Shown piece by piece: positions 8,495 through 64,000 of a DNA stretch of 64,000 nt. The notes under the pieces were generated by a model, which was not told the DNA's origin, did no database searches, and saw only the letters and a program-made list of their open reading frames with translations. A program made the position numbers and the translations under genes. Within the stretch, counting starts at the first letter, position 1, and each line of letters begins with the position of its first letter. Origin of the DNA: Gammaproteobacteria bacterium (GTDB lineage: Bacteria; Pseudomonadota; Gammaproteobacteria; JABABF01; JAHRAO01); NCBI GenBank assembly GCA_020027215.1, contig JAHRAO010000018.1, positions 10,013-74,012 of the forward strand. The letters run 5' to 3'.

Positions 8495-8521
8495 TATAAT
8501 GCCCCATAAAGTTTGGGCATG

Positions 8522-8598: not shown

Positions 8599-8600
8599 GT

Positions 8601-8677: not shown

Positions 8678-8759
8678 ATTTTCTTCTCTTTCCTCCGCGA
8701 TGAAATAATCAATCCCCTATAGTTTATGTCATAATATCTCCACAATCATTCATTGTGAT

Positions 8760-8836: not shown

Positions 8837-8849
8837 CCATAATACACAT

Positions 8850-32010: not shown

Positions 32011-32327
32011 TGCTTCATTTAGTCAACGCCCTACTCGATCCAGATGATCTCGCCCGCCTGTGCAGGTGGCTAGATCGGGAGAGTAAAATATTACTCATTG
32101 AGGATGGAGTCTATGCCGCCGCCCACTCGCACCCTCATGCCACACAATTTGCCGAGAAACAGGCAAGTGCTTTGCGCCGCGATAGCCTCCAGCGCAGTAT
32201 TCCGCGCATCCATCCCGCAATAATGCTCATTGACGATAATGATTTTGTCGCTTATGTCGTGCAGTGCGGTGGCGTTATGAATTGGGGGACACGCTCAGCT
32301 GGGCACAACAAAGATTACAAAGGATGA
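32010..32327 (+). CDS. tusB: Sulfurtransferase complex subunit TusB (DsrH family)
   Basis: The start MLHLVNALL.. overlaps the tusC stop (TAATG). About 105 aa, of DsrH/TusB size and position. The ORF track starts earlier, at 31980. Confidence 0.5.
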   Translation: MLHLVNALLDPDDLARLCRWLDRESKILLIEDGVYAAAHSHPHATQFAEKQASALRRDSLQRSIPRIHPAIMLIDDNDFVAYVVQCGGVMNWGTRSAGHNKDYKG

Positions 32328-35300
32328 AAAAGAGGCACCCGCGGGAAATAGAGGGCAATGCGAGGCTGTTTGGAATGATGAGCAAAAACCAATTGGGCAT
32401 ACTCCTGCAACTGCGCTTGATGGGACTGGACTTGTTGCGCAATAAACCGCTCTTGCGACTCTGTGGGTGTTGGAACGGCTGATTTATAATCTATTATCCA
32501 CGGTACGCCTTTTTCATCAATGAAATAGCGGTCAATAACGCGTCTTTTTAATTCTCCTTTTTCATAATATGTCAGTGCCCATTCTGCAACACCTTGTTTA
32601 TGGGCAGGATTGAGTATCCATTGTCCAGTTTTATCTGCCAAAGTTTTATCAATCGCATCATTGACCGCCACCACCGCATCATTCATTTGCTGTGACGCCA
32701 CACCTTGTTGGCGGAGCAACGATTCAACCATCTCTTGCCGCCGCGCTGCTGGCGGGAGATCTACACCCTCTGCCAAATGTTTGAGTAGTTCATGAATGAC
32801 ATTACCGATAGCAGTGCTGACACGAGGATATTCCACCCACTCCGATTCAGGTAATTTGCTATCTTTTTGAGGTGGAGATGTGCGTGCCGATGGTGATTCG
32901 GGGACCGACAATGACGACAAAGGTAAGCGCCATATAGTTGGTTCAGCGATCTGTTCGGGTGCTTGTTGCTGAGATGGAACTTCGTGGATTTCATAACGTG
33001 TCACAGCGCACACTCTTCCTAATGCATCTGTCAACGACAATTTTTGTTCTTTTTGTGTCGCCCATCCACTCAAAATCAATCGTTTCCGCGCACGGGTTGC
33101 GCCAATATACAATAAGCGATCTTCTTCATACTCTCGCCGCAACTTATTTTGTTTCTCTAAAAAATAATAGAGCAATTCATGTTTATTTTTTTGCACCTGC
33201 GGCAATTTGGCACCAATGAGAAGTGGCGATTGTTTTTCCCATGCTTGATAATCCCACAATAATAGCGGTGTAGAGTCATTGTGGGATGCGCGGTGCAATG
33301 ATGGTAAAAAAACCGTGTCAAACTCTAATCCTTTTGCGGTATGCACGGTCATAATGTGCACACTATTCGCATCGGGTGCTAGTGAGGAAGAATACAGCTT
33401 GGCAATCTGCTTTTCTATGTAAACCGCATCGGGTAATTGATCATCCAATTGAGCGAGCAACGCAAAAAATTGATCCGCGTCTTGCCATTCATTTCTCTTG
33501 GCAACAAGAGCAGGCCCGCCTAATGATCGCCATACTCCTAATATCCACTGCGAAAAAGGCACGCGTTCACGGCGGTCAAAAGCAGCGTGCAGTATATTGA
33601 CTAATGCCGTTATTCGCACAGCACCATCCCGAGACAAACCATCACTCTGTGCTCGCACAGCACATAATCGGTGCCATATTGTCTCGCCCATTCCATCACC
33701 TGCAACCGCCAATAAGTCGGCGTGATCCAAAGCGCACCAAGGCGCCCGCAATAGTGCTAACCACGCAATGCGATCGTTGGGGTTAGTGAATGCGCGCACC
33801 AAAGCGAGCAATTCACCAATTGTCATCTTGATTGCCAATTTATCAATTTCTTCTGCACGCCAATTCACTTTATGGGCGCGTAAAGCTGGCAATATATACT
33901 CAAGACATTTACGGGTACGCACTAAAATAGCAATACTCTCCCTGGGAGAGATCTGCTGGTATTCTTTTATTTGTTTTACCAGCCATGTTGCTTCAGCGGT
34001 GCCTTTTTTTTGATTATTGGCACCAACAAAAACATGGACTTGCGGGGCGGCAGTGTCTCCTTGCCGATCTGCCTGCATGGGTGTGTAAGAAACCGCCCCG
34101 AACGCAATATTTTCTTGTCGCGGAAAAATATCGGCAAAACAGTGATTAATCCATTCAATAATGGTATGGGTCGTGCGAAAATTGGTTTGCAGGTTGCAGA
34201 GTTCTAAACCCACATTGCCGATACCATTGCGACGCGTGTGTAAAAACAAACCCACCATGGCGCCACGCCAACTATAACACGACTGCATGGCATCACCGAC
34301 GACAAAGATGGTGCGCGAGGATTGTGGGTACTGTTCATTGTATTCTGCCCAGTCAGCGGTTAATTTTCGCACCAATTGGAATTGATGGGATGATGTATCT
34401 TGAAATTCATCAATCAAAATATGGTGCAGTCGATAATCCAGTTGCAAAGCAATATCGGTCGGACAATCATCGCGTCCCAGTGCGTCTTGTGCGCCCATGG
34501 CAATTTGCTGATAATCCACCTGTCGCTTATTGTGAAAAATCACCATCAAGTGGGCTGCCAATTTCGGTAATATGGCGGTCACTGCTTCCACTAAACGCCA
34601 CTCGTTTTCACTACTTTTCAACTGGGGTAACTCGCGCACATTTTCTAAAGACTTCGGGATATCGGCATGTGCTTGACCAATGTGGGCAATAATGTCCAGC
34701 ATTGCATCCTTTTGTGTTTTATTTTTTTTCGGCAGAAATTCTTGTTTTTTAGTAAGTTTTTTTCGCAAGCCGTTCCCTTGAGTCAATAGCAAATCGGCAA
34801 TCTTTCGCAGTGCCGCAAGTCGTTGATCATCATCGGTGGGTAAGCACGGATATTGCAATGGTGAGCAGTCCAGCTCGGCGCATATAGCAAAAATTTTATC
34901 GAGCCACGGCTTCAAATTTTCAATCGTTTCTTCAACTACTTGCATAATCATGCCCGCGCGCGCTTTATCTAATTCATCGCAAACCTCTTTGCCGCTCATT
35001 CCTCCCGTTCCACACAGTGGCAACCATTGCTCACGAGAAGGCAATAGTTTTACTAACATCTTGACCAAGTCATCGCTACGATTATCAACCACTTCGCGCA
35101 ATAAAGTTTCAATAGGGATCCGCAAATCGGGATGCGCAATGACCTCACGCGCTGCCTGATCATATAAAATGTCGGGGTCGCTCACAATACCCATTTTTTC
35201 ACTTAAACCAGATTTAATCGGTAATTGTTCGGCGACAAAACGATTAAAGCTATCAATGGTCATAATTTGTAAGCGATTGGGGTAATCCAATAAACGCCAG

Positions 35301-35608
35301 TTTTTTTGCGCATCGCACTGGAGCACCTTATGCGCCAATTGCCACGTTTGCTGGAGATGCTCTTCATTTGGCGGCGATGAAGATTCTTTGGCAGCAGTCA
35401 AATGTTCAAGGATGCGATTTTTCATCTCCGCCGCCGCCTTCTTTGTAAAAGTCATCGCTAAAATGGCTTCGGGTTGATCGACATCTGCCAAAAGTGCTAA
35501 CATGCGTTGGGTCAGCAAGTCGGTTTTACCTGATCCAGCGGGAGCACTCACACAAAAAGATGTGCGGATATCTAAAGCGCGCTCACGTGCGCGCGCATCA
35601 ACAATCAT
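32315..35608 (-). CDS. addA: AddA-type ATP-dependent helicase/nuclease (UvrD/REP helicase with C-terminal PD-(D/E)XK nuclease)
   Basis: Walker A SAPAGSGKT and UvrD-family helicase motifs. The C-terminal nuclease motif GVPWIIDYKS (D-Y-K) is typical of AddA/RecB nuclease domains. The start is taken at the Met forming an ATGA overlap with the addB stop at 35605-35608. Confidence 0.75.
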   Translation of the reverse strand: MIVDARARERALDIRTSFCVSAPAGSGKTDLLTQRMLALLADVDQPEAILAMTFTKKAAAEMKNRILEHLTAAKESSSPPNEEHLQQTWQLAHKVLQCDAQKNWRLLDYPNRLQIMTIDSFNRFVAEQLPIKSGLSEKMGIVSDPDILYDQAAREVIAHPDLRIPIETLLREVVDNRSDDLVKMLVKLLPSREQWLPLCGTGGMSGKEVCDELDKARAGMIMQVVEETIENLKPWLDKIFAICAELDCSPLQYPCLPTDDDQRLAALRKIADLLLTQGNGLRKKLTKKQEFLPKKNKTQKDAMLDIIAHIGQAHADIPKSLENVRELPQLKSSENEWRLVEAVTAILPKLAAHLMVIFHNKRQVDYQQIAMGAQDALGRDDCPTDIALQLDYRLHHILIDEFQDTSSHQFQLVRKLTADWAEYNEQYPQSSRTIFVVGDAMQSCYSWRGAMVGLFLHTRRNGIGNVGLELCNLQTNFRTTHTIIEWINHCFADIFPRQENIAFGAVSYTPMQADRQGDTAAPQVHVFVGANNQKKGTAEATWLVKQIKEYQQISPRESIAILVRTRKCLEYILPALRAHKVNWRAEEIDKLAIKMTIGELLALVRAFTNPNDRIAWLALLRAPWCALDHADLLAVAGDGMGETIWHRLCAVRAQSDGLSRDGAVRITALVNILHAAFDRRERVPFSQWILGVWRSLGGPALVAKRNEWQDADQFFALLAQLDDQLPDAVYIEKQIAKLYSSSLAPDANSVHIMTVHTAKGLEFDTVFLPSLHRASHNDSTPLLLWDYQAWEKQSPLLIGAKLPQVQKNKHELLYYFLEKQNKLRREYEEDRLLYIGATRARKRLILSGWATQKEQKLSLTDALGRVCAVTRYEIHEVPSQQQAPEQIAEPTIWRLPLSSLSVPESPSARTSPPQKDSKLPESEWVEYPRVSTAIGNVIHELLKHLAEGVDLPPAARRQEMVESLLRQQGVASQQMNDAVVAVNDAIDKTLADKTGQWILNPAHKQGVAEWALTYYEKGELKRRVIDRYFIDEKGVPWIIDYKSAVPTPTESQERFIAQQVQSHQAQLQEYAQLVFAHHSKQPRIALYFPRVPLFHPL

Positions 35609-38214
35609 ATTTTTTCCTGCTCGCGAATACGGCAACAATGATGCAAATGACAATAACGGCACGTACTCTCTTTTTGTGGCGCCACCCGCGCAACGCCGCG
35701 GCAGTATTCATCCGCCAAACATTCAATAGCCACACGCCACTCTTTGAGCAGAGATGGGGTGATTTCTTGTGTATGATACTTATACTTAGATTCGGAAGAA
35801 CATACTTGTGCCACCGCTAATGTGTGCAGTTTCCGCTTTTTATCTTGGGTATACACAAGGGCATAAAGAGGCATTTGCGGGGCACTCAGGCGCTTATAGT
35901 CCCATTTAGTATCAATTTTTTTGCCGGTCTTGTAGTCAATCAACCAATAATCCCCTTTATGGGTGCGATCAAGCCTATCAATGCGCAGATTGACTTCGGC
36001 ATCACCGATCTTTCCTTTAATCGTGCTCTCGCATTCTACCACCTTAAATTTTTCTCGTTGAGATCGTTGAGATTCGGCTGTCTCCATCCATTGACTAATG
36101 AGATTCACTAAACGTTCGCGTTCAAGGGATAGCCAGATTTCGCCCCATCTTTGCACAGCTTTATTCTCCTTCTGCCATTTTTCCAAGATGCGATCGCATG
36201 AATCGGCAATCAATGATTTGCGAGAATCACGACCGAATAAATAAGACATATTTCCTGTCTCCGTCGCCTGTTTATATAATTCAGCCAACACTTCATGCAC
36301 CAATTGACCTCGTTCAGCATAATCCGGACCTATTGCCGTCTCGTCTATCTGCCTCGCGCCCAAGCGATGGAGGGCAAAAGCACGGAAAGGACAGGCATAT
36401 TGATCGGTGAAATGTCCGCTACGCATAACGGGAGACTCAACGCGCACATCATCGAGTACAACAGGTTCTAACTGTGGCGCATCGGCTGGGTCCATGACCC
36501 AATGGGGCTGCCAAGTGTGTTCCCATTCTGCATTAGGCTTGTAACCACTCACCAAATTATGGGGGAGCATTTCGCAATCATCAGCCGATTGCGCCATACT
36601 CCATAAAATATGCGGGGCGCTTTGTTGGTAATCAGCAAATAATTGGGTTGCCATATCTGCATTGTGTGCGACATCGGCGTAATTCATTCCCCATTCCTTT
36701 TGTAACGACAAAGGAATCATCGGATTGGGATGAGGAAATACTGGCCAGTTAGTATTCCAACCGGTATACCATACCCCATCACAACGCAACCCTGCTATTT
36801 CCAGCGCACCCAACACATGCACTGTCACAGTGGGCACACTTTGTGCTTGGAACTGACAACGCCATGCCATATCGTTTAATCGTTGCGTTGCTTGTGGACG
36901 ATTCAATTGACCTAACAAAGCGTCATACAAAGCAAATTCATTTAATAAATCTTGCCATCGCTCCCATTGCTGATACTCGGCATGATTAAAACGCCCTCTC
37001 CCCGGATAACCGAGTGCACGTAACTCCTGCCGCCACTGATCGACCCAAGCACTCGGGGCACAAAGAGTAGGTTTATCTTTCTTCATTTCCTTTAATGCCC
37101 GCACCATCTGAGGGCAGGTTTCCCCCAATGTGCTTTCATCGCACCACTGATATAAATCATCTGGCGTCATCTCTTCCTGCCGCCGTTTCAATAATTCCTT
37201 GATAGGACGAGCGGTGTTCCCGGGTGCACTACACTCGGTAATGTAAGGGGATTGCAATAGTGCACACAACAGGGACACCTGTATTGGTCGGTAGGGGAGA
37301 TCTAATAGGTGGAGTGCGGTCGATACCAGCGAGAAATGAGTCAAGCTTCTTGGCGCAGCAATATTGACTACTGCAGAGATATCGGGGTTCAATAAACAAT
37401 CCCCCGCAAAAACATCGGTGAGTACACGTTCCACTATCGGGCGTTGCTGAGTTAAGTTGGGCACCACTACGGCATAGGTCTTTTCGGGGTGCGCCGCCGA
37501 TTTTTCTCGTGCCCAGCGCGCCGCACTATATAGTTCACTTAATGAATCGGTGCATTGGATGAGCTCGCTCTCTGCAGTGAGTTCAGAGACCGCTATATCT
37601 TCATTTTTTTCGCCAATGAATGCGGCTAATTCACGATACAAAGGCGGAAACGGTTGAAAACCTATAGGGGCAATAATGGGCACTTTTTTCTTCTGCCCTG
37701 TGCGATACATTTCTATCACCATGGGCGCTATTTCCAAGCACGTCATGGCTTTTTTTTCATTGGCAAGTATGCGATACGACTGCAAGCACTTATAAAATAA
37801 TTCGCCATTATCCCGCCGTTGGAATTCCTGCATCACCAACTCTTCGTCCCAATCAATCTGCCATAAAAGCAATTGTTTATAAGCCTGACGCATATGATTG
37901 ACCGTATCAAACGAATGTTCATCGCAGTTTTGCGCTATCGCTTGCTGCCACAAAATCTGTTCTCCCTCATCCGAGAGAATGTACCATGGCGAGGCTTTCG
38001 CTGACTCTACACACACCAATGATGTCCATTGGCTACGCAACCATTGTTCCGCAGTAGAGATGAATGGGGTTTGCCACGCATGGCGTTTTTGTTGGCGCTG
38101 ATGGTCGTCATACACCCCCATCATCGCACGACACAAGCGTTGGCGGGCACCCCAAACGACACCTCCCGCCTCTAATACACCTATCAAACGAGTGGAATCA
38201 TAAATAATATTCAT
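35605..38214 (-). CDS. addB: AddB-type helicase-nuclease partner subunit (PD-(D/E)XK nuclease with C-terminal Fe-S cysteine cluster)
   Basis: 869 aa. The C-terminus has a nuclease motif (..GDYWLIDYKTGKK..) followed by cysteines CRYCHLHHCC, typical of the AddB iron-sulfur staple. It lies directly upstream of addA with ATGA coupling. Confidence 0.7.
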   Translation of the reverse strand: MNIIYDSTRLIGVLEAGGVVWGARQRLCRAMMGVYDDHQRQQKRHAWQTPFISTAEQWLRSQWTSLVCVESAKASPWYILSDEGEQILWQQAIAQNCDEHSFDTVNHMRQAYKQLLLWQIDWDEELVMQEFQRRDNGELFYKCLQSYRILANEKKAMTCLEIAPMVIEMYRTGQKKKVPIIAPIGFQPFPPLYRELAAFIGEKNEDIAVSELTAESELIQCTDSLSELYSAARWAREKSAAHPEKTYAVVVPNLTQQRPIVERVLTDVFAGDCLLNPDISAVVNIAAPRSLTHFSLVSTALHLLDLPYRPIQVSLLCALLQSPYITECSAPGNTARPIKELLKRRQEEMTPDDLYQWCDESTLGETCPQMVRALKEMKKDKPTLCAPSAWVDQWRQELRALGYPGRGRFNHAEYQQWERWQDLLNEFALYDALLGQLNRPQATQRLNDMAWRCQFQAQSVPTVTVHVLGALEIAGLRCDGVWYTGWNTNWPVFPHPNPMIPLSLQKEWGMNYADVAHNADMATQLFADYQQSAPHILWSMAQSADDCEMLPHNLVSGYKPNAEWEHTWQPHWVMDPADAPQLEPVVLDDVRVESPVMRSGHFTDQYACPFRAFALHRLGARQIDETAIGPDYAERGQLVHEVLAELYKQATETGNMSYLFGRDSRKSLIADSCDRILEKWQKENKAVQRWGEIWLSLERERLVNLISQWMETAESQRSQREKFKVVECESTIKGKIGDAEVNLRIDRLDRTHKGDYWLIDYKTGKKIDTKWDYKRLSAPQMPLYALVYTQDKKRKLHTLAVAQVCSSESKYKYHTQEITPSLLKEWRVAIECLADEYCRGVARVAPQKESTCRYCHLHHCCRIREQEKI

Positions 38215-43775: not shown

Positions 43776-43983
43776 CGCATGCACTCCAACAAAAAGAAAT
43801 GACCGCTCCATTTATGCATGCACACTATAATAATGGATGTTGCCATTTCTATAGTGAAGTTTTTCATCAGAGCACAATTGAATAAGGATATATCGCAAGG
43901 GATTATAATAATGGACGAAATGATTATCAGGCACTCTATCGTTATTTATGGCAATATGGCTTATAAAAGGTCAGGGGGAATAA

Positions 43984-45282
43984 ATGGCAGCGCTCAACGT
44001 CGCCAATAGAACGCTCTTTAATAGAGATAACTTGGATATTTTGCACGGAATCAACGATAGTTGTATTGATCTGATCTATTTAGACCCCCCATTCAATAAA
44101 AAAAAGACTTTCACCGCCCCGATTGGCAGTAGCGCAGAGGGTGCATCGTTCACCGATATTTTTAGACAAGAAGATATTAAGGACGAATGGGTGGATAGTA
44201 TCCGCTATGAAAATCATCAACTGCACGAATATCTAAAAGGAGTGAAGTTCTTTAGCAATCAATATAATTATTGCTACCTCGTTTATATGGCCGTGCGACT
44301 GATGGAATGCCACAGAATACTGAAAAATACGGGTAGCCTTTATCTCCATTGTGATCCGACTATGTCGCACTATCTGAAAATAGTGCTGGATTGTATTTTT
44401 GGAGAGGATAATTTTAGGAATGAAGTTGTTTGGAGCTACAGCACGGGTGGAGTTAGCAAAAGACATTTTGCAAAAAAACACGACATTATTTTGTTTTATT
44501 CTAAAACTTCTAAAAAGTGTTTTAATCAACCGAGAATACCAAGCAAAGATAGCAAAAGATTTAACATACAGGATAATTATGGCAAAATGTATTATGAAAA
44601 AGCTGGCAATCGTTATTACCTAGATGAAGGTGTTGCCATGACTGATGTATGGGATGTTTATCCTGTTAGAAATGTATCAAAAGAACGTACCGGCTACCCC
44701 ACCCAAAAACCGCTTGCTTTATTAGAGCGGATCGTACAAGCGAGTAGCAACAAAGGGGATGTGGTGCTGGACCCTTTTTGTGGTTGCGCCACAACCTGCA
44801 TAGCGGCAGAAAAACTGGAAAGACAATGGATAGGAATAGATGTATCGGTCACGGCGTATGATTTAGTTAGGAAGCGGATGCGCGATGTTTATCCGGACAC
44901 CGAAATGTTCAAGGATTACGGGATTATTTGTCAAACCACCGTGCCCACCCGCACTGCAATGGGTACAGCAGACAGCAGTGGATTTGTTTACGTGATCAAA
45001 AACGCTGCTTGGAAAGCGCGCTACAAAGTCGGTATCGCCAAAGATGTGGGCAAACGATTAAAGAGCTACCAAACATCAGACCCGCATCGGGGTTATGAAT
45101 TAGTGTATAGCCGACAAAGTATTTATTACCGAGAGATAGAAAAATACATCCACAAGCGGTTTGATAGCGACTATGAATGGGTCTTGTGTCGCGATGAACA
45201 GGCGTTAATTGAAGCCATAGAAAAATATAAAAAAGCCCCGTCGTTGCTCAAAGTCGCCGAACAAGATAATGATTATACATAG
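43984..45282 (+). CDS. Beta-class DNA N6-adenine/N4-cytosine methyltransferase fused to a C-terminal T5orf172 (GIY-YIG-like) domain; no adjacent restriction gene
   Basis: Motif IV IYLDPPF (DPPY-type) comes before motif I VVLDPFCGCATT, which is the beta-class order. The C-terminal ~100 aa (GFVYVIKNAAWKARYKVGIAKDVGKRLKSYQTS...YELVY..) matches the T5orf172/MUG113 domain pattern. The RBS AGGGGG sits 5 nt before the ATG. The upstream 170 bp is AT-rich. Confidence 0.75.
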   Translation: MAALNVANRTLFNRDNLDILHGINDSCIDLIYLDPPFNKKKTFTAPIGSSAEGASFTDIFRQEDIKDEWVDSIRYENHQLHEYLKGVKFFSNQYNYCYLVYMAVRLMECHRILKNTGSLYLHCDPTMSHYLKIVLDCIFGEDNFRNEVVWSYSTGGVSKRHFAKKHDIILFYSKTSKKCFNQPRIPSKDSKRFNIQDNYGKMYYEKAGNRYYLDEGVAMTDVWDVYPVRNVSKERTGYPTQKPLALLERIVQASSNKGDVVLDPFCGCATTCIAAEKLERQWIGIDVSVTAYDLVRKRMRDVYPDTEMFKDYGIICQTTVPTRTAMGTADSSGFVYVIKNAAWKARYKVGIAKDVGKRLKSYQTSDPHRGYELVYSRQSIYYREIEKYIHKRFDSDYEWVLCRDEQALIEAIEKYKKAPSLLKVAEQDNDYT

Positions 45283-45311
45283 GCTAATCTAATGGCTTAA
45301 GCACTCTCATT

Positions 45312-47051
45312 ATGGGCATGGCGATTATTCGGGAATTAAACCAACGGTTGATTGACCAAATCAGTGCGGGGGAAGTCATTGAGCGGCCTTCATCAATCAT
45401 CAAAGAGTTGTTAGAAAATAGCTTAGACGCTTCCGCGACACAAATTGAAATCACCTTGCAACAGAGCGGATTGCGGCTGATTCAGCTGCGCGATAATGGG
45501 GTGGGCATTGCGAAAGAGGATTTAATCATGGCGTTGCGCCGCCATGCGACAAGTAAAATCAGCAACTTAGACGAGCTTCTAGCCATAGGGAGTTTTGGTT
45601 TCCGCGGCGAAGCACTCGCATCCATTGCCGCTGTATCGCGCACCGTATTGACTTCATCGTGCGGTGGACAAAGCGGATGGCGGATGGAAAATGGCACCAT
45701 TACTGCGGCACCTCATCCACAAGGCACCACCGTTGCAGTCAGCGACCTATTTTACAACACTCCAGCACGGCGAAAATTTTTACGTTCCGAACGCACCGAA
45801 TTACGTCATCTACTCCAATGCAGCAGGGAAATAGCACTGAGCTGTTTTGATGTGGAATTATCCATCACCCATAATAAGCGCAGGATCAATCATCTGCCGG
45901 TGTGCCACAATGACGCAGATAAAAAAGACCGTTTAGCCGCGATTTGCGGCAAAGACTTTATAACTCACGCCATACCGGTCCATCAAGAAAACAACGGCAT
46001 CGTCTTAGAAGGTTGGATTGCTGAACCCGCTTACGCACGAAGCCAAGCGGATATGTTTTATCTCTATGTGAACAAGCGCTCAATCAATGATCGCTCCATT
46101 TACCATGCCATTCGCCAAGGATACCGTGATGTGCTCTACCACGATAGGCACCCAGCATTTGTTCTCCATCTAACCGTTGATCCAGCAACAGTAGATGTCA
46201 ATGTACATCCCACTAAACGAGAAGTGCGCTTTACCGCACCGCAGGCGGTGCATAGCTTTGTCACCGGTGTTATCCAACATACTTTAGCCACCCACAGTCC
46301 GCGCAATGCCCAAGAATCGCGACAAATAAAAGTGACTTCCACTGATTCAGCGGCAGTGCAGCTCCGCCACCAACAAACTCCATCTCTCCCGCTGACTGGA
46401 GGGCGTGCCGATTCGGCAATACGCGATCTAAACCTTTCCTCTATCAAAGAGAAATCCGAGGAGATACCGCCTTTAGGATATGCATTGGCACAATTAAAAA
46501 ACATCTACATTCTCGCCGAAAATGCAGAAGGGCTCATTATTGTAGATATGCATGCCGCTCACGAACGCATCACCTATGAAAAAATGAAGCAAGAGTTTGC
46601 CCAATATAGCAGCATTGCATCTCAATCTTTGCTCACTCCGATTACCGTGAATATCAACACACAAGAATATGCTCTCGTAGAGCAACACAGTGCGTTACTC
46701 GCCAATATGGGGTTGGAAATTGATTTAGTGGGTGAGGAGCAACTGCTTATTCGCTCCTATCCAACTCGATTAGCGCACGATAAAGTGAGCGCATTAGTGC
46801 GCGATCTGCTCAGCGATTTAGCGCAATACGGGGTGAGCGAACGCATAACAGATCATTATAATGATCTATTATCTTCTATGGCTTGTTATCACTCAATACG
46901 GGCGGGACGGCAACTCACCCTTGCTGAAATGAACGCCTTACTGCGTGAAATGGAGAGTACAAGTTATAGTGGGAGTTGCAATCACGGTCGTCCAACTTGG
47001 GTGGTGCAAAGCATAACTGAATTAGATAAGCTATTCTTGCGCGGGCAGTGA
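45312..47051 (+). CDS. mutL: DNA mismatch repair protein MutL
   Basis: GHKL ATPase N-terminus ISAGEVIERPSSIIKELLENSLDA and GFRGEALASI, with a C-terminal dimerisation region. 579 aa. Confidence 0.9.
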   Translation: MGMAIIRELNQRLIDQISAGEVIERPSSIIKELLENSLDASATQIEITLQQSGLRLIQLRDNGVGIAKEDLIMALRRHATSKISNLDELLAIGSFGFRGEALASIAAVSRTVLTSSCGGQSGWRMENGTITAAPHPQGTTVAVSDLFYNTPARRKFLRSERTELRHLLQCSREIALSCFDVELSITHNKRRINHLPVCHNDADKKDRLAAICGKDFITHAIPVHQENNGIVLEGWIAEPAYARSQADMFYLYVNKRSINDRSIYHAIRQGYRDVLYHDRHPAFVLHLTVDPATVDVNVHPTKREVRFTAPQAVHSFVTGVIQHTLATHSPRNAQESRQIKVTSTDSAAVQLRHQQTPSLPLTGGRADSAIRDLNLSSIKEKSEEIPPLGYALAQLKNIYILAENAEGLIIVDMHAAHERITYEKMKQEFAQYSSIASQSLLTPITVNINTQEYALVEQHSALLANMGLEIDLVGEEQLLIRSYPTRLAHDKVSALVRDLLSDLAQYGVSERITDHYNDLLSSMACYHSIRAGRQLTLAEMNALLREMESTSYSGSCNHGRPTWVVQSITELDKLFLRGQ

Positions 47052-50868: not shown

Positions 50869-51364
50869 AAGAATTGATCTTATGAATAATCCAACATATT
50901 TGGAAAACTTTGTAGAACCCGCTGTGCTTAACCGCAAACGTTTAGAAATTAATGAAATTCTAAATATATAATTCCCACATTGAAACACTCGCTTCATTGT
51001 CCTCAAACACATTAAAAAGCCATACCCGCTACAACATTCCCAACGTTGCAGAACGAAAGGGTACGGCATACAATATTGTCACTTAAAAGTATGCTCCCAA
51101 AAATTATTGACGAGGATGTTGTTTGTGTCATTCACGACCCCACTCCCGCAAAAAATTTCGTCCAGTCCATTGTTGCCGCACAATGAGCAATGACACTTTT
51201 GGGTTGCAGTAGTGGTGTTTGGTGGGGGCGATAGTTGCCGAAAGTTATATCACCGATGGTTTATCAAATTGGGGGCAATGGACTGTGTGAACGGAGGCAA
51301 TTGACGACTGGATTTTTAAGCGATTGAAGCATCAACAATAAATTGATTCTCCAAAATATTGTGA

Positions 51365-55961: not shown

Positions 55962-56843
55962 TTAAAAAATACTGGTGAAAGTCATGCGATAAAGCAAGCG
56001 TTCATAGCGATTACCTCCATCCGCCCTCACCTGCACCGTACGAGCAGATAAATCTAAAGAGCGTTTGTTATTATGGAACGCCATAACACCTCCCAAGGAA
56101 AACACATGCGTATCACCTTTCAAACGGTAAGCAAATTGGTTTTCCTGTGATCCACCAAACACTTCATCTGGTTCTATTGCGCGGGCATTATTAATCACAT
56201 TTAATGGCGCAATACCACTTGAAGTCGTATCGCCCGTGAGAAACCTGTAATTAGTATAGAGCAAGAAATTATTACTCAATTGAAAATCAAAATTAGTAAA
56301 TAGCCCAGTGTTAATCGTATCAAATGTCTCACCTTTTGCTTCACGTTGGCGGTAGTCAATCCCCGCAAAAAAAGATGTGCGCAGTGATAATGGCGAGAGC
56401 ATTTGCATGCCGTAAATATAGGTCGTTGAATCGCGCCTATCGGAAAACACATCATCCTCTACGACGCGTACAAAAAGTTGATAACGGTTGGAAAAGGGAC
56501 CGAGGGAACGTGCAAAATGTAATGCCAATTTTGTCTCGTATTCATATTCGCTTAATTCGTTAAAATGCCTGAAATCTGTGTAAGCCACTTTTCCATGGAG
56601 GGTCACAAACACCTTGTGGCTAATATTTTTTGCCAAATTGACTTGCATGTTGGCCGTGTTCAATATATCCTCACGGCGAATATCTGATTTTTCTGCCGTA
56701 TTGACATTATTATCCAACACAGCGGATAGGCCAAAAAAACCTGAAAAGCCATCCAAGAAATCAGCGTTTGCCGTCACGGAATAGCAACACAATACAAAGC
56801 CGATCCATATCGGGCGACAGGCATATGCCATCACCTTAATCAT
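55962..56843 (-). CDS. Predicted outer-membrane beta-barrel protein (small OMP, family unassigned)
   Basis: Signal peptide ..IWIGFVLCCYSVTANA followed by alternating amphipathic beta-strand-like segments and a C-terminal ...RMTFTSIF ending in Phe, as is typical of OMPs. The start is chosen at the Met forming an ATGA overlap with the adhesin stop. The ORF track begins at 56861. Confidence 0.45.
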   Translation of the reverse strand: MIKVMAYACRPIWIGFVLCCYSVTANADFLDGFSGFFGLSAVLDNNVNTAEKSDIRREDILNTANMQVNLAKNISHKVFVTLHGKVAYTDFRHFNELSEYEYETKLALHFARSLGPFSNRYQLFVRVVEDDVFSDRRDSTTYIYGMQMLSPLSLRTSFFAGIDYRQREAKGETFDTINTGLFTNFDFQLSNNFLLYTNYRFLTGDTTSSGIAPLNVINNARAIEPDEVFGGSQENQFAYRLKGDTHVFSLGGVMAFHNNKRSLDLSARTVQVRADGGNRYERLLYRMTFTSIF

Positions 56844-59800
56844 TGGTTTATGAATCTGCATAATTTTATCTTTCTTGCAATTATAAGATATATTTTAACC
56901 CCAACCAGCAATAAGAGCAAGTATAATATTATCTGCCCGATTGCCCCGCCGCGCGCGAGAATCGGGGTGGGAGGAATTACTTTCTGTGGGAGTGCCAATT
57001 TTATAGTCGTTTCCAGCACCCCATTCGCCATGCGATCATCATCGTAGATCCCTCCATCACGCAACGATATCCTCACACATCGGCTTGAACCGTGTAAACC
57101 TAACACGTATGCGCTACTGCCCGGGGGGGGACATCCTCTTGTCGAATCGCCAATAATACTCGCAAACTGGGTGCCGCTTGCCGCATTCGCGACCACCGAC
57201 TGCCACATACCAGCACGACGATTATATCTCCGCCACTGCGCATCAGAAGTCAAGCCAATAGGCAATTCAAATATTATACCAATATCCTGTCCAGGCATAG
57301 CTCGATTGACAACAAAAGAATATATAGCACTGATATCAACAAATTTACTGTCCGTCACGATAGCGGTACTGGTCACCATATCCCCATTTTCTCCACCAAA
57401 TTGTGCAATTTGGTGGTAAGTAACGCCAACACCTCCTGAAATAGTGCTACCAGCTAAAGCAATTGCACTCGGTTGTAACACCAATCCCGGCATAGTTTCA
57501 ATTAAGTAAGGGGGGGAACTGTTCGGATAAACATGCATCACATGCATAGGGAGGGATGAGTGTTGCGTCACAGTACTCGCTCGCCACACGCTTGCAATAT
57601 CGGTGCGCATGGGGGGAGCGCCATTATCGGTGATAGTGACGGCCAAACGATAGAGCCTGTGGGGAATCAGATTGCGCGCATCAAAGCTAAACATGCGTAC
57701 CGAAGACATTGGGGCAGCAAAAGAAGCATCACTCCCTCGCCAACTGATATTCTGTTGGTTATCTGCATTGGGATCTCTAATGTTGAGGAGCACCGACACT
57801 GGCGTTGTACTGATCGGAATAACATTATTGGATAACAACACTCCGTCTTGCCGCAAATCAAACCAAGCCGTTGACGGAAAATTGTCTTCAATAATAGAAA
57901 TCCTATGGTCGCGATTACCGCGCAAGGTTGCCCCTATAGCGGACTGCAAACGCACAACTATTGTCTCTTCTCCTTCTTGTACATCATCATTACATATCGA
58001 AAAATTAATCGCGGCGCTGGTTTGGCCTTGAGTAATCATAGTATTACGGAAAGAAGGGAGCACAACATCCACTCCAGAGGCACAACTATCGCCGACCATT
58101 GCCGTGCCTGACACAGTATAAGTCACAGTGACAGGATAGAACGGGGTCACGCCATTCAGTATGAATTGGATTGTGCCCGTACTGCCCTCTCCCAATACTT
58201 GATTATTTCCCACTTCCACAATGGGAATAATATAAATCGTCTGGTTAATAGTACTTTCAACGGGTTGGCTTATACCTTCAAATGTCGCCCGCCAAGTAAT
58301 AATATGCCGTCCAGTAGTTAAACTCAGGCTCACCGCGGGCGCAAAGACCGTTAAAGATTGACTAGTATTAAATAATTGTGCGCTCGGCCGTTCTAAAGCA
58401 CTCAGTGGAGTTAGTCGTCCAACCGCTGCAATGATTTGTTGCATTTGAGATAGCTGCCATACCACAGCATATCCCGGCAATTGATCCATAAAATATTCAT
58501 TTGCATTAGGTAATAAATCGCCATCTAAATCTTCCAAAGCATCCGATATACCGTCATTATCACTGTCTGCGTTGAGTGGGTTTAATCCATAAATAATTTC
58601 CCATTCATTGGGCAATCCATCGTTATCGCTATCATGTGGTAAGGTTATTACCACTTGGATCGTTGATGATGAGCGCGCACCATCTTCGTCAGAAATGGTG
58701 TAATGCATTACTTCTGGTTGTTGGGGTAAAGTCACTTGACGACAGAGCGGAATATAATGGATACTATTGGTCTCTGTATCAATAGTGATTGTGGCTGAAG
58801 CCTGAATCGGAGTCACCTGTACAATGTCTAAGAATTGATTCTCACTATCAAAATCATTACGTTGTGGCATAAATCGGTTGATTACAGGCGGAGTTTCACA
58901 CGAACTAATTACTGAAAAATAATCAGGATACGCCACTGGCGTATCGTTCACTGGGTTCACTTCAATATCATAAAATTGATTGGAGATGGTATCGTTTGCG
59001 CCATCCCGTACCAGATAAATAAACTTATCACTGGTCGTCTCGCTACCATCGTGCCGATAACTCACCATGCCTGCGTCTAACATGGCTTGCGAAAATTGAG
59101 TGACGCGCTCGTCAGGGGTATCCGCCTTGATCAGTCGCCCATAAGATGGTTCTTGGACAATATTGTAAAGGATCTGGGAAACAGGGTGATCATTATCCGC
59201 CACCGATAAACTCATTGAAGTGAGCACTGCCTCACTTCCCTCATCCAAGACCAATGTTCCGGTAGAAACAATGTGGGGTACATCATTGACATCGCGAATA
59301 TTAATTTGCAAAGATAGAGGCAGAGAAACAGTTGCACCATCATAAACTGTGAGATTAAATGATGTCGTGCGAATTGGCGGATTGGGGTTTTCACTGCCAT
59401 CATGCACATAACGCAACCGTTGATCAATCCCCATCATATCGCGCATCAAATCATCATTGACATCTTCTTGCGAAAAAATATCTCCCGTCCCCAAAAAACC
59501 GTGCTCTAACATCAGCACTCCATATTGCGGTGTGCTGATGAGCGTATAAATAATATCAAAATCTAATGGTCCGTCGCGATCGATTAAACGCAGGACATTA
59601 TCATCAATCGCAACGACCCCGCCTTCGTCCACCCATATGGTTGCAGTGACAATAGTGGGGGTGGTATTATTAGAATCAATGATTGCAACAAGTGTTTGAG
59701 TGACCACCATAGCGGGCGCATCTGTGTCGTGTACTGCATAGAGGATTTCATCCCGCCCGTTAGAAGCATCCCCGCGCGGTATATGGTGATTGTAAACAAT

Positions 59801-62800
59801 ATTTCCATCATTGAGCGCCTTTTGGGTAAAGGTTGATCCAGAAGCCATTATTGACGAGGTAAATATGTTCAGTAAATCACCTTCTTCGGGTAATTCTGCC
59901 ACTTGGTACACTATTTCTTCGGGCGGGTTATCTACATCTATCCACGATAAGTTCGCGGTTGTAACAGTGACGCTCGTATTGATGACAGGAAGTACTAATG
60001 AAAGCAGACCCTGTCGTTCTTCAGGAATATCATTAATGGGTGTGATTTCTATATTCACCGTATATTGCGGCGACTCTAATCCTTCGTTATCGCTTACCAC
60101 AAAACGAAAGTTATCGGTACCCGAGGTATGGTTTTGCGGCGGGTAATTAGGCTGAGGGTGATAATACAGTACGTACTCCCCATTATTATTGAGGAAGTAC
60201 TGCCCACTGGTGTCAATGGACACACCGTTATTGTCCGCTAAGGTACCGTTAGTTGGGCTACTTGTCAAGCGCACGCGCAAAGAAGTTCCTATATCTTCTA
60301 CATCGGCGCCGCGCAAAACAATTTGCACCGAACTATCTTCCACCACGACCACGTTCGCACTAGACGGAAGCAAGTTCCCCACCCCCGCCACAGGCGTACT
60401 ATCATTAATGGCAACACTCGGAGTATCATTAATCGGTTGAATCATGAGTGTCACTGTGGTCGGTAGTGAACTAGAGACGAAGTCATTCGCCACAAAAGTC
60501 GCAGTATCTTGACCGTTTTCATGAAGATTGGTAGTATAGGTTAGAGTGGCCACTCCGGCGACAAAGGAACCGGTAGTCGGCACTATAGTACCCTTTAAAG
60601 GTGCTGATAATATTTCATAAGACAAGGCATCGCCATCAACATCCATTGCGCGAAGAGTAATCGTGCTGGATGTATCTTCATCCAGCATTACTTGAACAGG
60701 AGTAGCGGTTGGGGTGTCATTGACGGGGATAATGGTTACGGATAAGGATGCCGGAAGCGAATCTGTGCTGCCATCATTGATTGTATAAGTAATGGTCGTC
60801 AATCCAAAAAAATTCGGCGGTGGTCGATAATGGACAATAAAGGTCGCGCTTGTGATACTGTCGCCTTGTAACATTCCACTCGTCGCAGAAAACATGGCAC
60901 CCGGCGGCGATGAACGCAATAGCCACGACAAAGGATCGCCATCACTATCGCTCCCGCGCACCGTGAGGGGGATTAATGTATCTTCAAGTCCCATAAAACT
61001 ATCGGAAATAGCGAGTGGTCTGTCTGGTTGATTATAGACAATAAAATTGATTGTGGGGCGGAGTAAAGTGCCGTATTGAAAGACAAAATTGTCCAGTCCG
61101 CGAAAATGAGCCCTTGGGCGATAGTTCAGCGTGGCAATACCATCAATAAAATTGATTGCACTCCCTACACCGAGCATATTTCCCGCCATCATTAAATTAC
61201 CAGAACTGAGTTGTATGATAGTGCCCGTAGTCGTACCGCTCAATGGCAATCTGATATCTACAGTAAAATCGACATCGGTATCTTCGTTTAATAATACGGT
61301 CACCGTCGGTGTAGTCGGTAAGTCGGCAATCGGCGTGACTGCTATACTAATCGTATGAGGAGATGATTGTAATAAGCTATTCACATTATAGGCAATAAAA
61401 TTGATTTGGTCTGACCCATTGTAATTAGGATGCGGCCTATAAAGACTACCAGTGAGTGAACCGTTTTGCGGCACGGAAGTAAATATAAAAGCTATATTAC
61501 CAGCATCAACATTGGTCGTAACCGATTCTAAAGACAATTGTAAGTCAATTACCCCATCTTCATTGACAGCGGTAATCAAATCGGCACTCGATGGCGGGTC
61601 TGCAGCATCATGCACCATAATGGTCACCGTAACTGCGGTAGAGAATGTTCCGCCAGAATCGCTTACCCGATATGCTAGCGTTTCCATGCCGACAAAATGA
61701 GCAGCAGGAGTATACAATAAAGATAATTGCCGCAACGCCACATGCGTAGCAGAAAAAGTAGCGGTCGTTCCAGCGGCAAGTGTCCCAGGTGTTCCCATTA
61801 AGCTTAAAGTGCCACTGGATGGCACACTGATCAATTCTACATAACCATCACTCAATCCCTCTCTATCCTGTGCATTGATGACCACTAACGCTGTCGTATC
61901 TTCTAATACATGGATAATCGTTGCATTTTGGGTCGAAGTCCCCACACCAGTTATTGGCGCATCAGGAACTGGATGGACGGTAAAGAATACTTGCGCCTCG
62001 GCAGAAGTAAAAGTGCCGTCATGCACCGCGTAAGTCATAAAATCTAAGCCAAAAAAGTGGGGGGATGGGGTATATTGAATGTTTGGCAAACTAGGAATGA
62101 TAGAACCATGGCGGGGTGGCGTAATAATCCGGTATGTGAGTGCATCACCATCTACATCACTCCCCCCTTGTAAAATGAAATTGGCAACCGTATCTTCCTG
62201 TAAGGGAACCTGAATTTGTGGAGCAGTCGGAAGATCATCCACCGGATTAATGAAAACGGTGACTGAACTTTCTCCCAGACTAAATGTTTGGGTGGCGACT
62301 TCAAATTGTATATTCCACGAATCGCTCCCATTGTAATTAGGAAGAGGCGTGTAGGTCAGGACATTGCTGGTTGTACAACCTATACCGACCAAAGAACCCA
62401 TACTGGTGATACTGCCTGAAGTGGGCAATAATGTGACACAAACCCGTGCAGTTGCGGCATTGAAAGTGATAGTGAGCGAACTATCCTCATTGAGCGTAAA
62501 AGTAGAGGTGGCTATGCTGAAGTTCGCCGTACTCACATCAGTATGAAAAAAGGTGGGGGTCGATAACGGAGCAACATCTATCTGTAACACACGGAACGTG
62601 ATAGTTGCTGTTGCGGATAAAACATTTTTATCATCCATTACTCGGAACAGCGCGGTGGTGTCGCCGACAAAATCAGGAGGCGCAAAATAATGTAAGGGAG
62701 AAGAAGTGCCCGTATACATGTTTGTCCTAAAATTGAAACTCGGGCGCATAGTGAGAGTACTCCCGATACTAAATGGCATTCCTTGATACAAAAATACACC

Positions 62801-64000
62801 TGTGGAGGGTAATGCTGTTATTTGTAACACAGCCGAGTTGCTGTCCACATCTGCACTGCTCAGCGTAAACTGGGCAGTCGTCCCTTGCGCTACTGCAATA
62901 GTGGAATCATTGGCAATGGGAGGAGCATTATTGATGGTAATATGCACGGTTGCAGGTGCAGACATTGCTCCATCTGCATCATGGACGCGAAAGGTAAAAT
63001 GCGCCGTGGTTTGTGTCCCTGTCGGAGTGTATAACACTTGATTATTCTGCACTGGAGACAAGATGCCCGCTGTTGGGGGAGTAACAATCGTAAAAAACAG
63101 ATCGGTCATGGTGTGATCGGCATCGGAGGCAGCAAGAGTAATCACTGTAGGTACTGCCGCTACCAAAACTGCAGAAACGGGCGTAGCAACGGGTGGGTCA
63201 TTGACGGGGAGGATAAGCACCGTATTGATGACAGTAGTATCTCCGCCGTCAGGATCACGGATATTGACGCGCAATGTATCGCTACCAAAAAATTGAGCAT
63301 TCGGGGTGTATTGCACGCCTATAGTCGCGATACCACTTGTATTGACAGTAAAGGCGGTGGAAGTCAACATCGCCATACCATTTGTGGGTGCCGTAACGAT
63401 TTGGGGGATCAATAAAGTGCTATCTATGTCCCGTAACCGATAATAAAATGACAGATTACTATCCTCTTCACCGCGCACAGGAAAAGTAGTCAATATTTGC
63501 TGTGTGCCACTAACCACAAAAGATTCAATAAACATCGGCGGGTCATTGACTGATTGGACAGTCACCATCAAGGTAATATTCGATGAGCACCCTGCATCAA
63601 TTCCGGTGCCAATTCCACTATCGCATACTCGTATCATCGCGCGAGCGCTACCCGTGAAATGATCTGGTGGACGGTAGCGTAAAGGCAATTGTGTACTGAT
63701 TGTTCCAGATGAGAGAGTGAGCACATGAATAAATAATGCCCCCGTTGTGCTGTCAATATCGTCAACGTGCAAGTCGCTCAGAGTCAACTCCAATACACTA
63801 TCTTCAAGAATGGTACGCGTTATTGTCATTTCCGTCGAAACGGGAAGATCATTGACGGCAACAACTTGAATCATCACGGTCGCCACCGGGGTCAAAAATC
63901 CATCAATACCATTAGACACGCGGAAGGTAAAACTATCGTTACCGTGGTAATTTGCATCGGGGCTATAGTGCAATGTGCGCCGCCCATTGGTTAAAAGGCC
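56840..64000 (-). CDS. Giant cadherin-like/VCBS-repeat adhesin (partial; N-terminus beyond window end), with thrombospondin-type-3-like Ca-binding repeats and a C-terminal hydrophobic helix plus basic tail
   Basis: Over 2377 aa of ~100-aa beta repeats, each ending in a VNDxP/INDTP/VNDLP motif (e.g. VAVNDLPV, VNDPPMF, PVNDPPVA, VNDTPTA, INDTPSV), with DSDNDG repeats near the C-terminal region. The tail reads ...PPTPILARGGAIGQIILYLLLLLVGVKIYLIIARKIKLCRFINQ. The reading frame runs to the window edge. Confidence 0.7.
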   Translation of the reverse strand, partial: GLLTNGRRTLHYSPDANYHGNDSFTFRVSNGIDGFLTPVATVMIQVVAVNDLPVSTEMTITRTILEDSVLELTLSDLHVDDIDSTTGALFIHVLTLSSGTISTQLPLRYRPPDHFTGSARAMIRVCDSGIGTGIDAGCSSNITLMVTVQSVNDPPMFIESFVVSGTQQILTTFPVRGEEDSNLSFYYRLRDIDSTLLIPQIVTAPTNGMAMLTSTAFTVNTSGIATIGVQYTPNAQFFGSDTLRVNIRDPDGGDTTVINTVLILPVNDPPVATPVSAVLVAAVPTVITLAASDADHTMTDLFFTIVTPPTAGILSPVQNNQVLYTPTGTQTTAHFTFRVHDADGAMSAPATVHITINNAPPIANDSTIAVAQGTTAQFTLSSADVDSNSAVLQITALPSTGVFLYQGMPFSIGSTLTMRPSFNFRTNMYTGTSSPLHYFAPPDFVGDTTALFRVMDDKNVLSATATITFRVLQIDVAPLSTPTFFHTDVSTANFSIATSTFTLNEDSSLTITFNAATARVCVTLLPTSGSITSMGSLVGIGCTTSNVLTYTPLPNYNGSDSWNIQFEVATQTFSLGESSVTVFINPVDDLPTAPQIQVPLQEDTVANFILQGGSDVDGDALTYRIITPPRHGSIIPSLPNIQYTPSPHFFGLDFMTYAVHDGTFTSAEAQVFFTVHPVPDAPITGVGTSTQNATIIHVLEDTTALVVINAQDREGLSDGYVELISVPSSGTLSLMGTPGTLAAGTTATFSATHVALRQLSLLYTPAAHFVGMETLAYRVSDSGGTFSTAVTVTIMVHDAADPPSSADLITAVNEDGVIDLQLSLESVTTNVDAGNIAFIFTSVPQNGSLTGSLYRPHPNYNGSDQINFIAYNVNSLLQSSPHTISIAVTPIADLPTTPTVTVLLNEDTDVDFTVDIRLPLSGTTTGTIIQLSSGNLMMAGNMLGVGSAINFIDGIATLNYRPRAHFRGLDNFVFQYGTLLRPTINFIVYNQPDRPLAISDSFMGLEDTLIPLTVRGSDSDGDPLSWLLRSSPPGAMFSATSGMLQGDSITSATFIVHYRPPPNFFGLTTITYTINDGSTDSLPASLSVTIIPVNDTPTATPVQVMLDEDTSSTITLRAMDVDGDALSYEILSAPLKGTIVPTTGSFVAGVATLTYTTNLHENGQDTATFVANDFVSSSLPTTVTLMIQPINDTPSVAINDSTPVAGVGNLLPSSANVVVVEDSSVQIVLRGADVEDIGTSLRVRLTSSPTNGTLADNNGVSIDTSGQYFLNNNGEYVLYYHPQPNYPPQNHTSGTDNFRFVVSDNEGLESPQYTVNIEITPINDIPEERQGLLSLVLPVINTSVTVTTANLSWIDVDNPPEEIVYQVAELPEEGDLLNIFTSSIMASGSTFTQKALNDGNIVYNHHIPRGDASNGRDEILYAVHDTDAPAMVVTQTLVAIIDSNNTTPTIVTATIWVDEGGVVAIDDNVLRLIDRDGPLDFDIIYTLISTPQYGVLMLEHGFLGTGDIFSQEDVNDDLMRDMMGIDQRLRYVHDGSENPNPPIRTTSFNLTVYDGATVSLPLSLQINIRDVNDVPHIVSTGTLVLDEGSEAVLTSMSLSVADNDHPVSQILYNIVQEPSYGRLIKADTPDERVTQFSQAMLDAGMVSYRHDGSETTSDKFIYLVRDGANDTISNQFYDIEVNPVNDTPVAYPDYFSVISSCETPPVINRFMPQRNDFDSENQFLDIVQVTPIQASATITIDTETNSIHYIPLCRQVTLPQQPEVMHYTISDEDGARSSSTIQVVITLPHDSDNDGLPNEWEIIYGLNPLNADSDNDGISDALEDLDGDLLPNANEYFMDQLPGYAVVWQLSQMQQIIAAVGRLTPLSALERPSAQLFNTSQSLTVFAPAVSLSLTTGRHIITWRATFEGISQPVESTINQTIYIIPIVEVGNNQVLGEGSTGTIQFILNGVTPFYPVTVTYTVSGTAMVGDSCASGVDVVLPSFRNTMITQGQTSAAINFSICNDDVQEGEETIVVRLQSAIGATLRGNRDHRISIIEDNFPSTAWFDLRQDGVLLSNNVIPISTTPVSVLLNIRDPNADNQQNISWRGSDASFAAPMSSVRMFSFDARNLIPHRLYRLAVTITDNGAPPMRTDIASVWRASTVTQHSSLPMHVMHVYPNSSPPYLIETMPGLVLQPSAIALAGSTISGGVGVTYHQIAQFGGENGDMVTSTAIVTDSKFVDISAIYSFVVNRAMPGQDIGIIFELPIGLTSDAQWRRYNRRAGMWQSVVANAASGTQFASIIGDSTRGCPPPGSSAYVLGLHGSSRCVRISLRDGGIYDDDRMANGVLETTIKLALPQKVIPPTPILARGGAIGQIILYLLLLLVGVKIYLIIARKIKLCRFINQ

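Follow-up and report, generated by a model that had tools for sequence, protein, structure and literature searches.

Why does a gammaproteobacterium carry a lone DNA methyltransferase gene, extended at its 3' end by a second domain and placed tightly upstream of mutL? The gene lies in a 64,000-nucleotide stretch of contig JAHRAO010000018.1 (assembly GCA_020027215.1; hereafter the window), and its product joins a beta-class methylase to a C-terminal T5orf172 domain, which resembles the GIY-YIG nucleases. It is an unremarkable member, standing alone at its locus, of a large family of such fusions that appears to be undescribed, and the window copy has no unusual feature except its position next to mutL. 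Our favoured answer is that the protein is a single-chain methylase-nuclease acting like a Type IIC restriction-modification (R-M) enzyme, a reading to which we give an even chance of being right.

How large is this family, and what holds it together? A search of 5.8 billion proteins returned at least 8000 candidate matches. The best 120 all have the same two-domain architecture and are 52-62% identical to the window protein, which, with a best identity of only 62%, is therefore without a close relative. Full-text literature searches found no description of the fusion family, of its arrays or of its carriage by IS1595 elements. In an alignment of 33 members the N-terminal and C-terminal parts are conserved and the middle is hypervariable and rich in insertions and deletions, at the position of the target-recognition domain of beta-class methylases. 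Residue conservation was computed over 166 distinct members; averaged over columns, conservation reaches 0.77-0.79 in the methylase parts and only 0.42 in the variable segment, with the T5orf172 domain between them at 0.66, and both methylase motifs are nearly invariant (Table 1).

The N-terminal module matches Pfam N6_N4_Mtase (PF01555) over amino acids (aa) 28-294 with an E value of 5.4e-47 (161 bits against a cut-off of 26.7). A phmmer search against solved beta-class methylases gave E = 4e-20, Foldseek matched the beta-class fold of M.BceJIV, CcrM, M.MboIIA and M.RsrI at E values of 4e-17 to 1e-15, and the solved relatives by sequence and fold together are these four and the Type III Mod subunits. 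NCBIfam and PADLOC assign the window protein to methylase families only. Its motif order is that of the beta class, with DPPF N-terminal to motif I and the variable segment between them; going by DPPF, the methylated base is probably N6-adenine. A first-pass annotation of the window had proposed a beta-class methylase with a C-terminal T5orf172 fusion, and both Pfam models score above their cut-offs. It was also right to place DPPF before motif I, but the FxGxG that it gave for the latter reads FxGxA (within DPFCGCATT), and invariantly so in the family. The interval that it assigned contains the gene but starts too early, since 43812 is the end of a neighbouring epimerase gene and the open reading frame (ORF) begins at 43984.

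What might the C-terminal domain do? T5orf172 (PF10544) is matched over aa 333-397 with E = 2.6e-8, and the 34.7 bits, against a cut-off of 20, bear out the homology that the first-pass annotation had wanted checked. MUG113 is matched with 28.7 bits (cut-off 22.3) and PHROG 5032 with E = 5e-21; a profile search with the domain gave 4648 representatives, of which many were fragments, and contributed little further. A structural model of aa 318-432 (predicted local distance difference test, pLDDT, 83) has a beta-beta-alpha-beta-alpha topology, and its 12 best PDB matches are all GIY-YIG nucleases (Slx1, BH0048 and HIGLE). Profile alignment of the N-terminal half of the domain (E = 8.5e-4) places FVYVIKN...YKVGIAKDVGKRLK on GIYQIKN...VYVGSAKDFEKRWK of I-TevI, that is, on its GIY, YIG and Arg27 elements. 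The corresponding residues are strongly conserved among the 166 members: Y336 and G350 in 100%, K348, R358, E386 and E398 in 99.4%, H390 in 97.6% and Y347 in 83%. The linker between the two modules (aa 306-332) combines low pLDDT with low conservation and, in the model, looks flexible, as in tethered nucleases.

The strongest argument for a nuclease tail is a comparative one. Some proteins in the genome collection share the methylase scaffold (about 44-55% identity over aa 1 to ~300-327) but have an HNH domain (PF01844, E values of 1e-11 to 1e-14) in the position of T5orf172, and these form a sister clade. Two unrelated nuclease folds at the same position on the same scaffold would imply that the tail functions as a nuclease, and judged by sequence both the methylase and the nuclease modules look active. 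T5orf172 is counted among the nuclease domains of N6A restriction-modification systems in a review (PMC4738411), and an engineered fusion of the GIY-YIG restriction endonuclease (REase) Eco29kI with its methylase is described as fully functional (PMC3039593). At one of the HNH-type loci, L051, the longest ORF also spans an N-terminal guanylate-kinase domain, which may be read-through in the ORF call and not a fusion.

In the mechanism that we favour, the central variable segment would recognise a short DNA sequence, and the beta-class methylase, probably an N6-adenine enzyme, would mark that sequence on the host chromosome. The GIY-YIG-type domain, on its flexible linker, would nick or cut DNA at or near unmethylated sites, for example in incoming phage or other foreign DNA; the enzyme's own methylation would block cleavage, and its role would be one of defence. 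The family would diversify through exchange of recognition segments and spread horizontally, partly inside IS1595-type transposons. Methylase, nuclease-like domain and one recognition module lie in one polypeptide, which is the layout of a Type IIC enzyme. Among the three functions that the first-pass annotation had offered, coupling of methylation to a nuclease-like module is the only one that fits the family evidence.

Several points weigh against this mechanism. The generic GIY-YIG model (PF01541) stays below threshold (14.8 bits against 22.6), so that the relation is at the level of the clan only; the PDB fold matches are statistically weak (E about 0.1, template modeling scores of 0.46-0.55), and hhalign gives the I-TevI alignment a probability of only 24%. 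The literature that we searched holds no biochemical demonstration of DNA cutting by T5orf172, nor by any member of this family. Family genes sit mostly among diverse housekeeping genes and not in defence islands. With a best identity of 62%, neither the activity nor the age of the window copy can be judged. To our knowledge, the one-polypeptide R-M enzymes combine gamma-class methylases with PD-(D/E)XK nucleases, so there is no direct precedent for the arrangement.

Does the variable segment behave as a specificity module? Tandem arrays of family genes (Table 1) bear on this; among the HiFi MAGs with arrays are CBDDBK010000002.1 (six genes) and ERZ25069764 ctg6703 (at least eight). Array paralogs have DNA identities of 0.90-1.00 over the initial ~420 nt and most of the final 400-450 nt, with near-identical spacers, and their central segments are essentially unrelated, at 0.40-0.57. 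The scaffolds in an array are thus either homogenised or recently duplicated with replacement of the cassette. When scaffolds and segments were compared pairwise across 232 family genes, 210 pairs had scaffolds at least 90% identical but recognition segments less than 50% identical. The reverse pattern, segments at least 75% but scaffolds less than 70% identical, was found in 11 pairs, some of which join a T5orf172-type to an HNH-type gene (L028 and L053, for example, with scaffolds at 56% and segments at 83%). Both patterns show that recognition segments move between scaffolds, and specificity appears to diversify in the manner of R-M systems. Family genes also accumulate outside single arrays: OY843583.1 has at least seven at four loci, and OZ241380.1 carries both nuclease types on one chromosome (L016 and L056). 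About 700 bp downstream of the six-gene array, on the opposite strand, lies a serine recombinase gene (Resolvase/Recombinase; L165 17815-18525).

These observations bear on a different view, in which the protein is an orphan methylase proper, with a part in regulation or housekeeping, and T5orf172 is a DNA-binding or positioning module, not a nuclease. No restriction gene lies near the window gene; mutL follows it closely and is probably transcribed together with it; T5orf172 is said to have been first described attached to the DNA-binding domains of viral regulators; and across 116 family genes scaffold guanine-plus-cytosine (GC) content tracks that of the host (r 0.92), which suggests long residence. 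However, regulators of the Dam and CcrM type keep one specificity and are vertically inherited, whereas in this family the recognition segment is the least conserved part and is exchanged between scaffolds, and the family has a patchy phyletic distribution. Arrays of six to at least eight specificities would make no sense for one regulator, and the nearly invariant nuclease-type residues and the HNH nuclease in the same place in the sister clade also speak against it. The epigenetic regulator that the first-pass annotation had considered agrees poorly with recognition segments that vary so strongly and with arrays of several genes, and we regard an orphan role as distinctly unlikely.

There is also a bolder version of the methylase-nuclease reading, one that we put forward only tentatively and think rather unlikely. 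The family would then be a modular, self-diversifying restriction platform: the beta-methylase scaffold would stay constant, the recognition cassette would plug into it, and the tethered nuclease, GIY-YIG-type or HNH, could be exchanged. IS1595 elements would carry it between phyla, and it would be amplified into arrays with scaffolds homogenised by recombination. Within such a platform, recombination in the arrays would possibly be stimulated by the enzymes' own nuclease.

How does the gene travel? Clustering of flanking ORFs yielded a sole recurrent neighbour, a transposase of the IS1595 family (PF12762 and a zinc ribbon). Its ORF mostly directly precedes the methylase gene in the same orientation, in many cases overlapping the start of the latter, and is adjacent in 17 of 79 genome loci, with both nuclease types. 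Inverted repeats beginning GGGAATTATATA bracket transposase and methylase-nuclease in units of about 2.6 kb, and four of the six units with clear repeats are flanked by perfect 8-bp target duplications (Table 1). The linked transposases are mutually only 40-54% identical, so the partnership with the methylase is an old one. No other family takes the place of a partner: a Pfam and PADLOC scan with clustering of 147 immediate neighbours in 77 family loci found no conserved partner, helicase or Res family that recurs, one of the 147 is an REase, and defence-gene matches are sporadic. The family appears to move horizontally as a single gene, partly as IS1595-type cargo, a mobility that it shares with many R-M genes. 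TadA-like deaminase genes lie directly upstream of family genes at two unrelated loci (L003 4214-4693 and L048 1044-1547); an insertion hot spot at tadA was dropped as a candidate because only these two independent loci were found.

Carriage of this kind raises the question of whether the gene serves its host at all. It could chiefly be a selfish module for mobility or maintenance, in which the methylase-nuclease, as cargo, promotes the persistence of its IS1595-type carrier or its own. Loss of the gene might have an addiction effect, or repair triggered by the nuclease might copy the gene, or the recognition cassette, to new sites; defence would be a by-product at best. Enclosure of transposase and methylase-nuclease within inverted repeats and target duplications, the age of the association, and single-gene insertions among housekeeping genes of many phyla would all suit such a module; GIY-YIG and HNH are the classic folds of homing nucleases (PMC1564403), and homogenisation of scaffolds within arrays implies frequent recombination. 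Yet a transposase is missing from 59 of the 76 loci analysed, the window among them, and repeat remnants are rare there (downstream in six of the 59 and upstream in three, against a background of 2.4%). Post-segregational killing is less obvious where one polypeptide loses both activities together, and no intron, intein or fixed target site was seen. We place a selfish module on the unlikely side; it overlaps with an R-M mechanism and does not exclude it.

The window copy itself has neither a transposase in the window nor repeat ends near the gene. Transposon vestiges around it were looked for and rejected, the repeat motif occurring in the window at chance frequency (11 matches against 10.7 expected) and the best matches flanking the gene having 4-5 mismatches. 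A solo terminal-repeat motif with one mismatch, GTGGGAATTATATA, lies at window 50965-50978 on the minus strand, in a 500-bp gap after an LpxH-like phosphoesterase gene, and has no partner repeat or transposase. At window 581-720 (minus strand) there is a ~45-aa remnant of another beta-class methylase, from the motif I region (...SNEGDYILDPFCGSDTT...), directly preceded by GGGAAATATAATTCCC, which resembles the IS1595-type terminal repeat of family loci; its sequence suggests an older, decayed copy in the same genome.

Which organisms carry the family? The hosts of the genome loci are mostly metagenome-assembled genomes (MAGs) from many phyla, with a patchy distribution that includes Poribacteria, Candidatus Poriferihabitans, Candidatus Amphirhobacter, Arenicellales, Dehalococcoidia, Spirochaetia, Rhodothermales and Latescibacterota. 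Going by record names, they appear to be mostly sponge symbionts; we take the MAG bin prefixes CAR, IRC, STY and RHO, provisionally, to denote host sponges sampled for MAGs in a demosponge study. Some members have another origin, Hydrotalea among them. R-M genes are reported to be enriched and laterally transferred in sponge symbionts (PMC8163846).

Could the protein be a protective methylase of phage or mobile-element origin, which shields DNA from the restriction enzymes of other cells? The methylase core has many phage relatives (PHROG 67; IMG/VR and phage records at 34-47% identity), and an array with many specificities might conceivably guard DNA on its way from one symbiont to another. 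The fusion tells a different story. The C-terminal domain is absent from the best 80 IMG/VR loci and from all phage records, where matches end at about aa 300-376; among plasmid records, two reach a coverage of at least 80%, with matches confined to aa 1-345 and an identity of 30%. Moreover, the neighbours in the window are chromosomal housekeeping genes, and protection alone leaves the conserved nuclease domain unexplained. The phage-derived anti-restriction methylase proposed in the first-pass annotation therefore finds no support in these records, and we judge such an origin very improbable.

We return to the locus with the methylase-nuclease reading in mind. To the left of the window gene are sugar-nucleotide and glycosyltransferase genes, and to its right come mutL, cysS and glnS, in this order. 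None of the adjoining genes is a restriction, specificity or defence gene, as had been noted at first pass, and the window contains no res helicase-nuclease gene. The label "orphan" given on that basis agrees with the gene map but probably misleads, since the protein seems to bring its nuclease partner along as a fused domain. An AddA/AddB-like pair upstream of the sugar cluster (32315-38214, minus strand), consisting of a UvrD-type helicase with a PD-(D/E)XK domain and a second PD-(D/E)XK protein, is ordinary recombination-repair machinery and no restriction partner. A very long ORF of 2377 aa occupies the right end of the window (56840-63973, minus strand).

Was the gene recently inserted here? 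Of the window's 41 ORFs with 150 aa or more, it has the lowest GC content, 0.413 (mean 0.462, standard deviation 0.025), and its GC at third codon positions (GC3), 0.42, is inside the range of the window. The dip is confined to aa 151-231 (GC 0.33, GC3 0.26), the other parts of the gene having host-like GC3 values of 0.44-0.49. Among the 116 family genes, from hosts with GC contents of 0.30-0.69, the central segment has a lower GC3 than the scaffold in 84%. The AT-rich patch is thus a family property of the variable segment and not clean evidence of a recent insertion in the window. The 172 bp upstream have a GC content of 0.337, against 0.413 for all window sequence outside ORFs of at least 150 aa. 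The AT-richness noted at first pass is real but modest; as an argument for insertion it is weak, since the gap is only slightly more AT-rich than other DNA outside ORFs. The accompanying suspicion of horizontal origin holds. The host is a deep-branching gammaproteobacterium whose nearest MutL homologs are only ~50% identical (Cellvibrionales, for example Gilvimarinus), and no close genome is at hand for comparison with an empty site.

Why, then, mutL? The intervening gap is short and without a terminator, so the two genes are probably co-transcribed, by read-through from the window gene into mutL; on the plus strand of the gap upstream of the window gene, no promoter-like site was scored. Since the gene adjoins mutL and a methylase joined to a nickase would suit the task, one might see in the protein a strand-discrimination factor of methyl-directed mismatch repair, a fused analogue of Dam and MutH. 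Among the loci fetched, however, mutL stands beside a family gene in the window only and is found within ~8 kb in none of the others. The window MutL (45312-47051) carries the DMHAAHERITYE endonuclease motif at aa 412-423, which is typical of, and implies, MutH-independent repair. A MutH-like role is rejected on these two grounds, variable specificities and arrays would not fit it either, and we give it next to no credence.

Table 1. Coordinates of the window gene and of family loci. Positions in the window count from its first nucleotide; those of other loci (L numbers) are the coordinates of each locus.
Feature	Sequence	Position	Strand	Remarks
Upstream intergenic region with ribosome-binding site	window	43812-43983	+	172 bp, GC 0.337; ribosome-binding site GGGGGA at 43974-43979
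Gene, beta-class DNA methyltransferase and T5orf172 (GIY-YIG-like) fusion	window	43984-45282	+	Intact, 432 aa; ATG at 43984
Catalytic motif IV DPPF, aa 34-37	window	44083-44094	+	98.8% conserved, 166 family members
Hypervariable central segment, aa ~151-231	window	44434-44676	+	Target-recognition-domain position of beta-class methylases; AT-rich
S-adenosylmethionine-binding motif I DPFCGCATT, aa 263-271	window	44770-44796	+	DPFCGCA 99-100% conserved, 166 family members
Linker between methylase and nuclease-like domain, aa ~306-332	window	44899-44979	+	Low confidence; poorly conserved
T5orf172/GIY-YIG-like domain, aa 333-412	window	44980-45219	+	Y336, Y347, K348, G350, R358, E386, H390 and E398 conserved
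Gap to mutL start codon	window	45283-45311	+	29 bp; no terminator-like site on plus strand
IS1595-type unit	L061	6893-9508		GGGAATTAT... inverted repeats; 8-bp duplication TTTCTGAT
IS1595-type unit	L058	6830-9440		GGGAATTAT... inverted repeats; 8-bp duplication AAACCTTT
IS1595-type unit	L025	6945-9735		GGGAATTAT... inverted repeats; 8-bp duplication AAAATTTT
IS1595-type unit	L080	7019-9653		GGGAATTAT... inverted repeats; 8-bp duplication CAACCAAA
Array	L005	553-13260		At least 8 genes; ENA contig
Array	L007/L165	8651-17098		6 genes; Flammeovirgaceae MAG; independent gene calls agree
Array	L010	5046-9260		3 genes; Spirochaetia MAG
Array	L046	5082-12167		5 HNH-type genes; Dehalococcoidia MAG
HNH-type loci	L044, L046, L047, L051, L053, L060, L067, L070, L082	~8001-9400 in most		Position of match

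What would follow if the fused domain does cut DNA? The family would be a new and very abundant class of one-protein R-M enzymes, in which a beta-class methylase with an internal recognition cassette is followed by a small GIY-YIG or HNH nuclease at the C-terminus. It could explain in part why R-M genes, as has long been noted, are enriched and laterally spread in sponge symbionts (PMC8163846). In the arrays, cassettes unrelated to one another sit in identical scaffolds, a swapping of specificity that would be useful for engineering targeted methylases or nucleases. Should the family be a self-diversifying platform as well, the symbiont communities of sponges would draw on one shared stock of specificities, and nature would already offer, in these proteins, small enzymes whose cut sites are chosen by an exchangeable methylase module. 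For the window gene, annotation as a plain orphan methylase is inadvisable.

How does the window protein compare with known systems? With the Type IIC/IIG enzymes (the MmeI family, Eco57I and BcgI-like enzymes) it shares the union of recognition, methylation and a nuclease domain in one protein, a specificity that shifts through the recognition module, and independence from a separate partner gene. In those enzymes an N-terminal PD-(D/E)XK nuclease precedes a gamma-class methylase and the recognition domain is C-terminal, whereas the window protein has a beta-class methylase, an internal recognition segment and a C-terminal GIY-YIG-type domain, replaced by HNH in part of the family. It does not belong to the MmeI type, because its methylase is beta-class and its nuclease GIY-YIG-type. 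The restriction enzymes Eco29kI and Hpy188I likewise pair a nuclease of the GIY-YIG fold with a methylase, but their nucleases recognise the site themselves and are in nature separately encoded. The T5orf172 domain, at ~80 aa and without evident recognition elements, would depend on the methylase for targeting. Homing endonucleases of the I-TevI type offer a parallel in their small GIY-YIG domain, flexible linker and separate DNA-recognition module; in I-TevI that module is a zinc finger and helix-turn-helix, in the window protein it is a methyltransferase, and there is no intron context here.

Fold, motif order and a central recognition domain are common to the window protein, the Type III Mod subunits and the beta-class Type II methylases (M.BceJIV, M.MboIIA, M.RsrI and CcrM). 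Unlike these, the window gene has no Res subunit or separate REase nearby, and a nuclease-like domain is fused to the C-terminus of its product. The movement of recognition modules between conserved scaffolds recalls module exchange in Helicobacter and in Type I hsdS genes, as well as the multispecific methylases of Bacillus phages; here, however, the variants form tandem arrays of complete, separately translated genes, with neither shufflons nor several recognition domains in one chain. Finally, IS1595 elements with passenger genes show the same DDE_Tnp_IS1595 transposase, terminal inverted repeats and 8-bp duplications around an extra gene. In this family the passenger is a methylase-nuclease, a cargo of which we found no description, and the window copy stands outside any such element.

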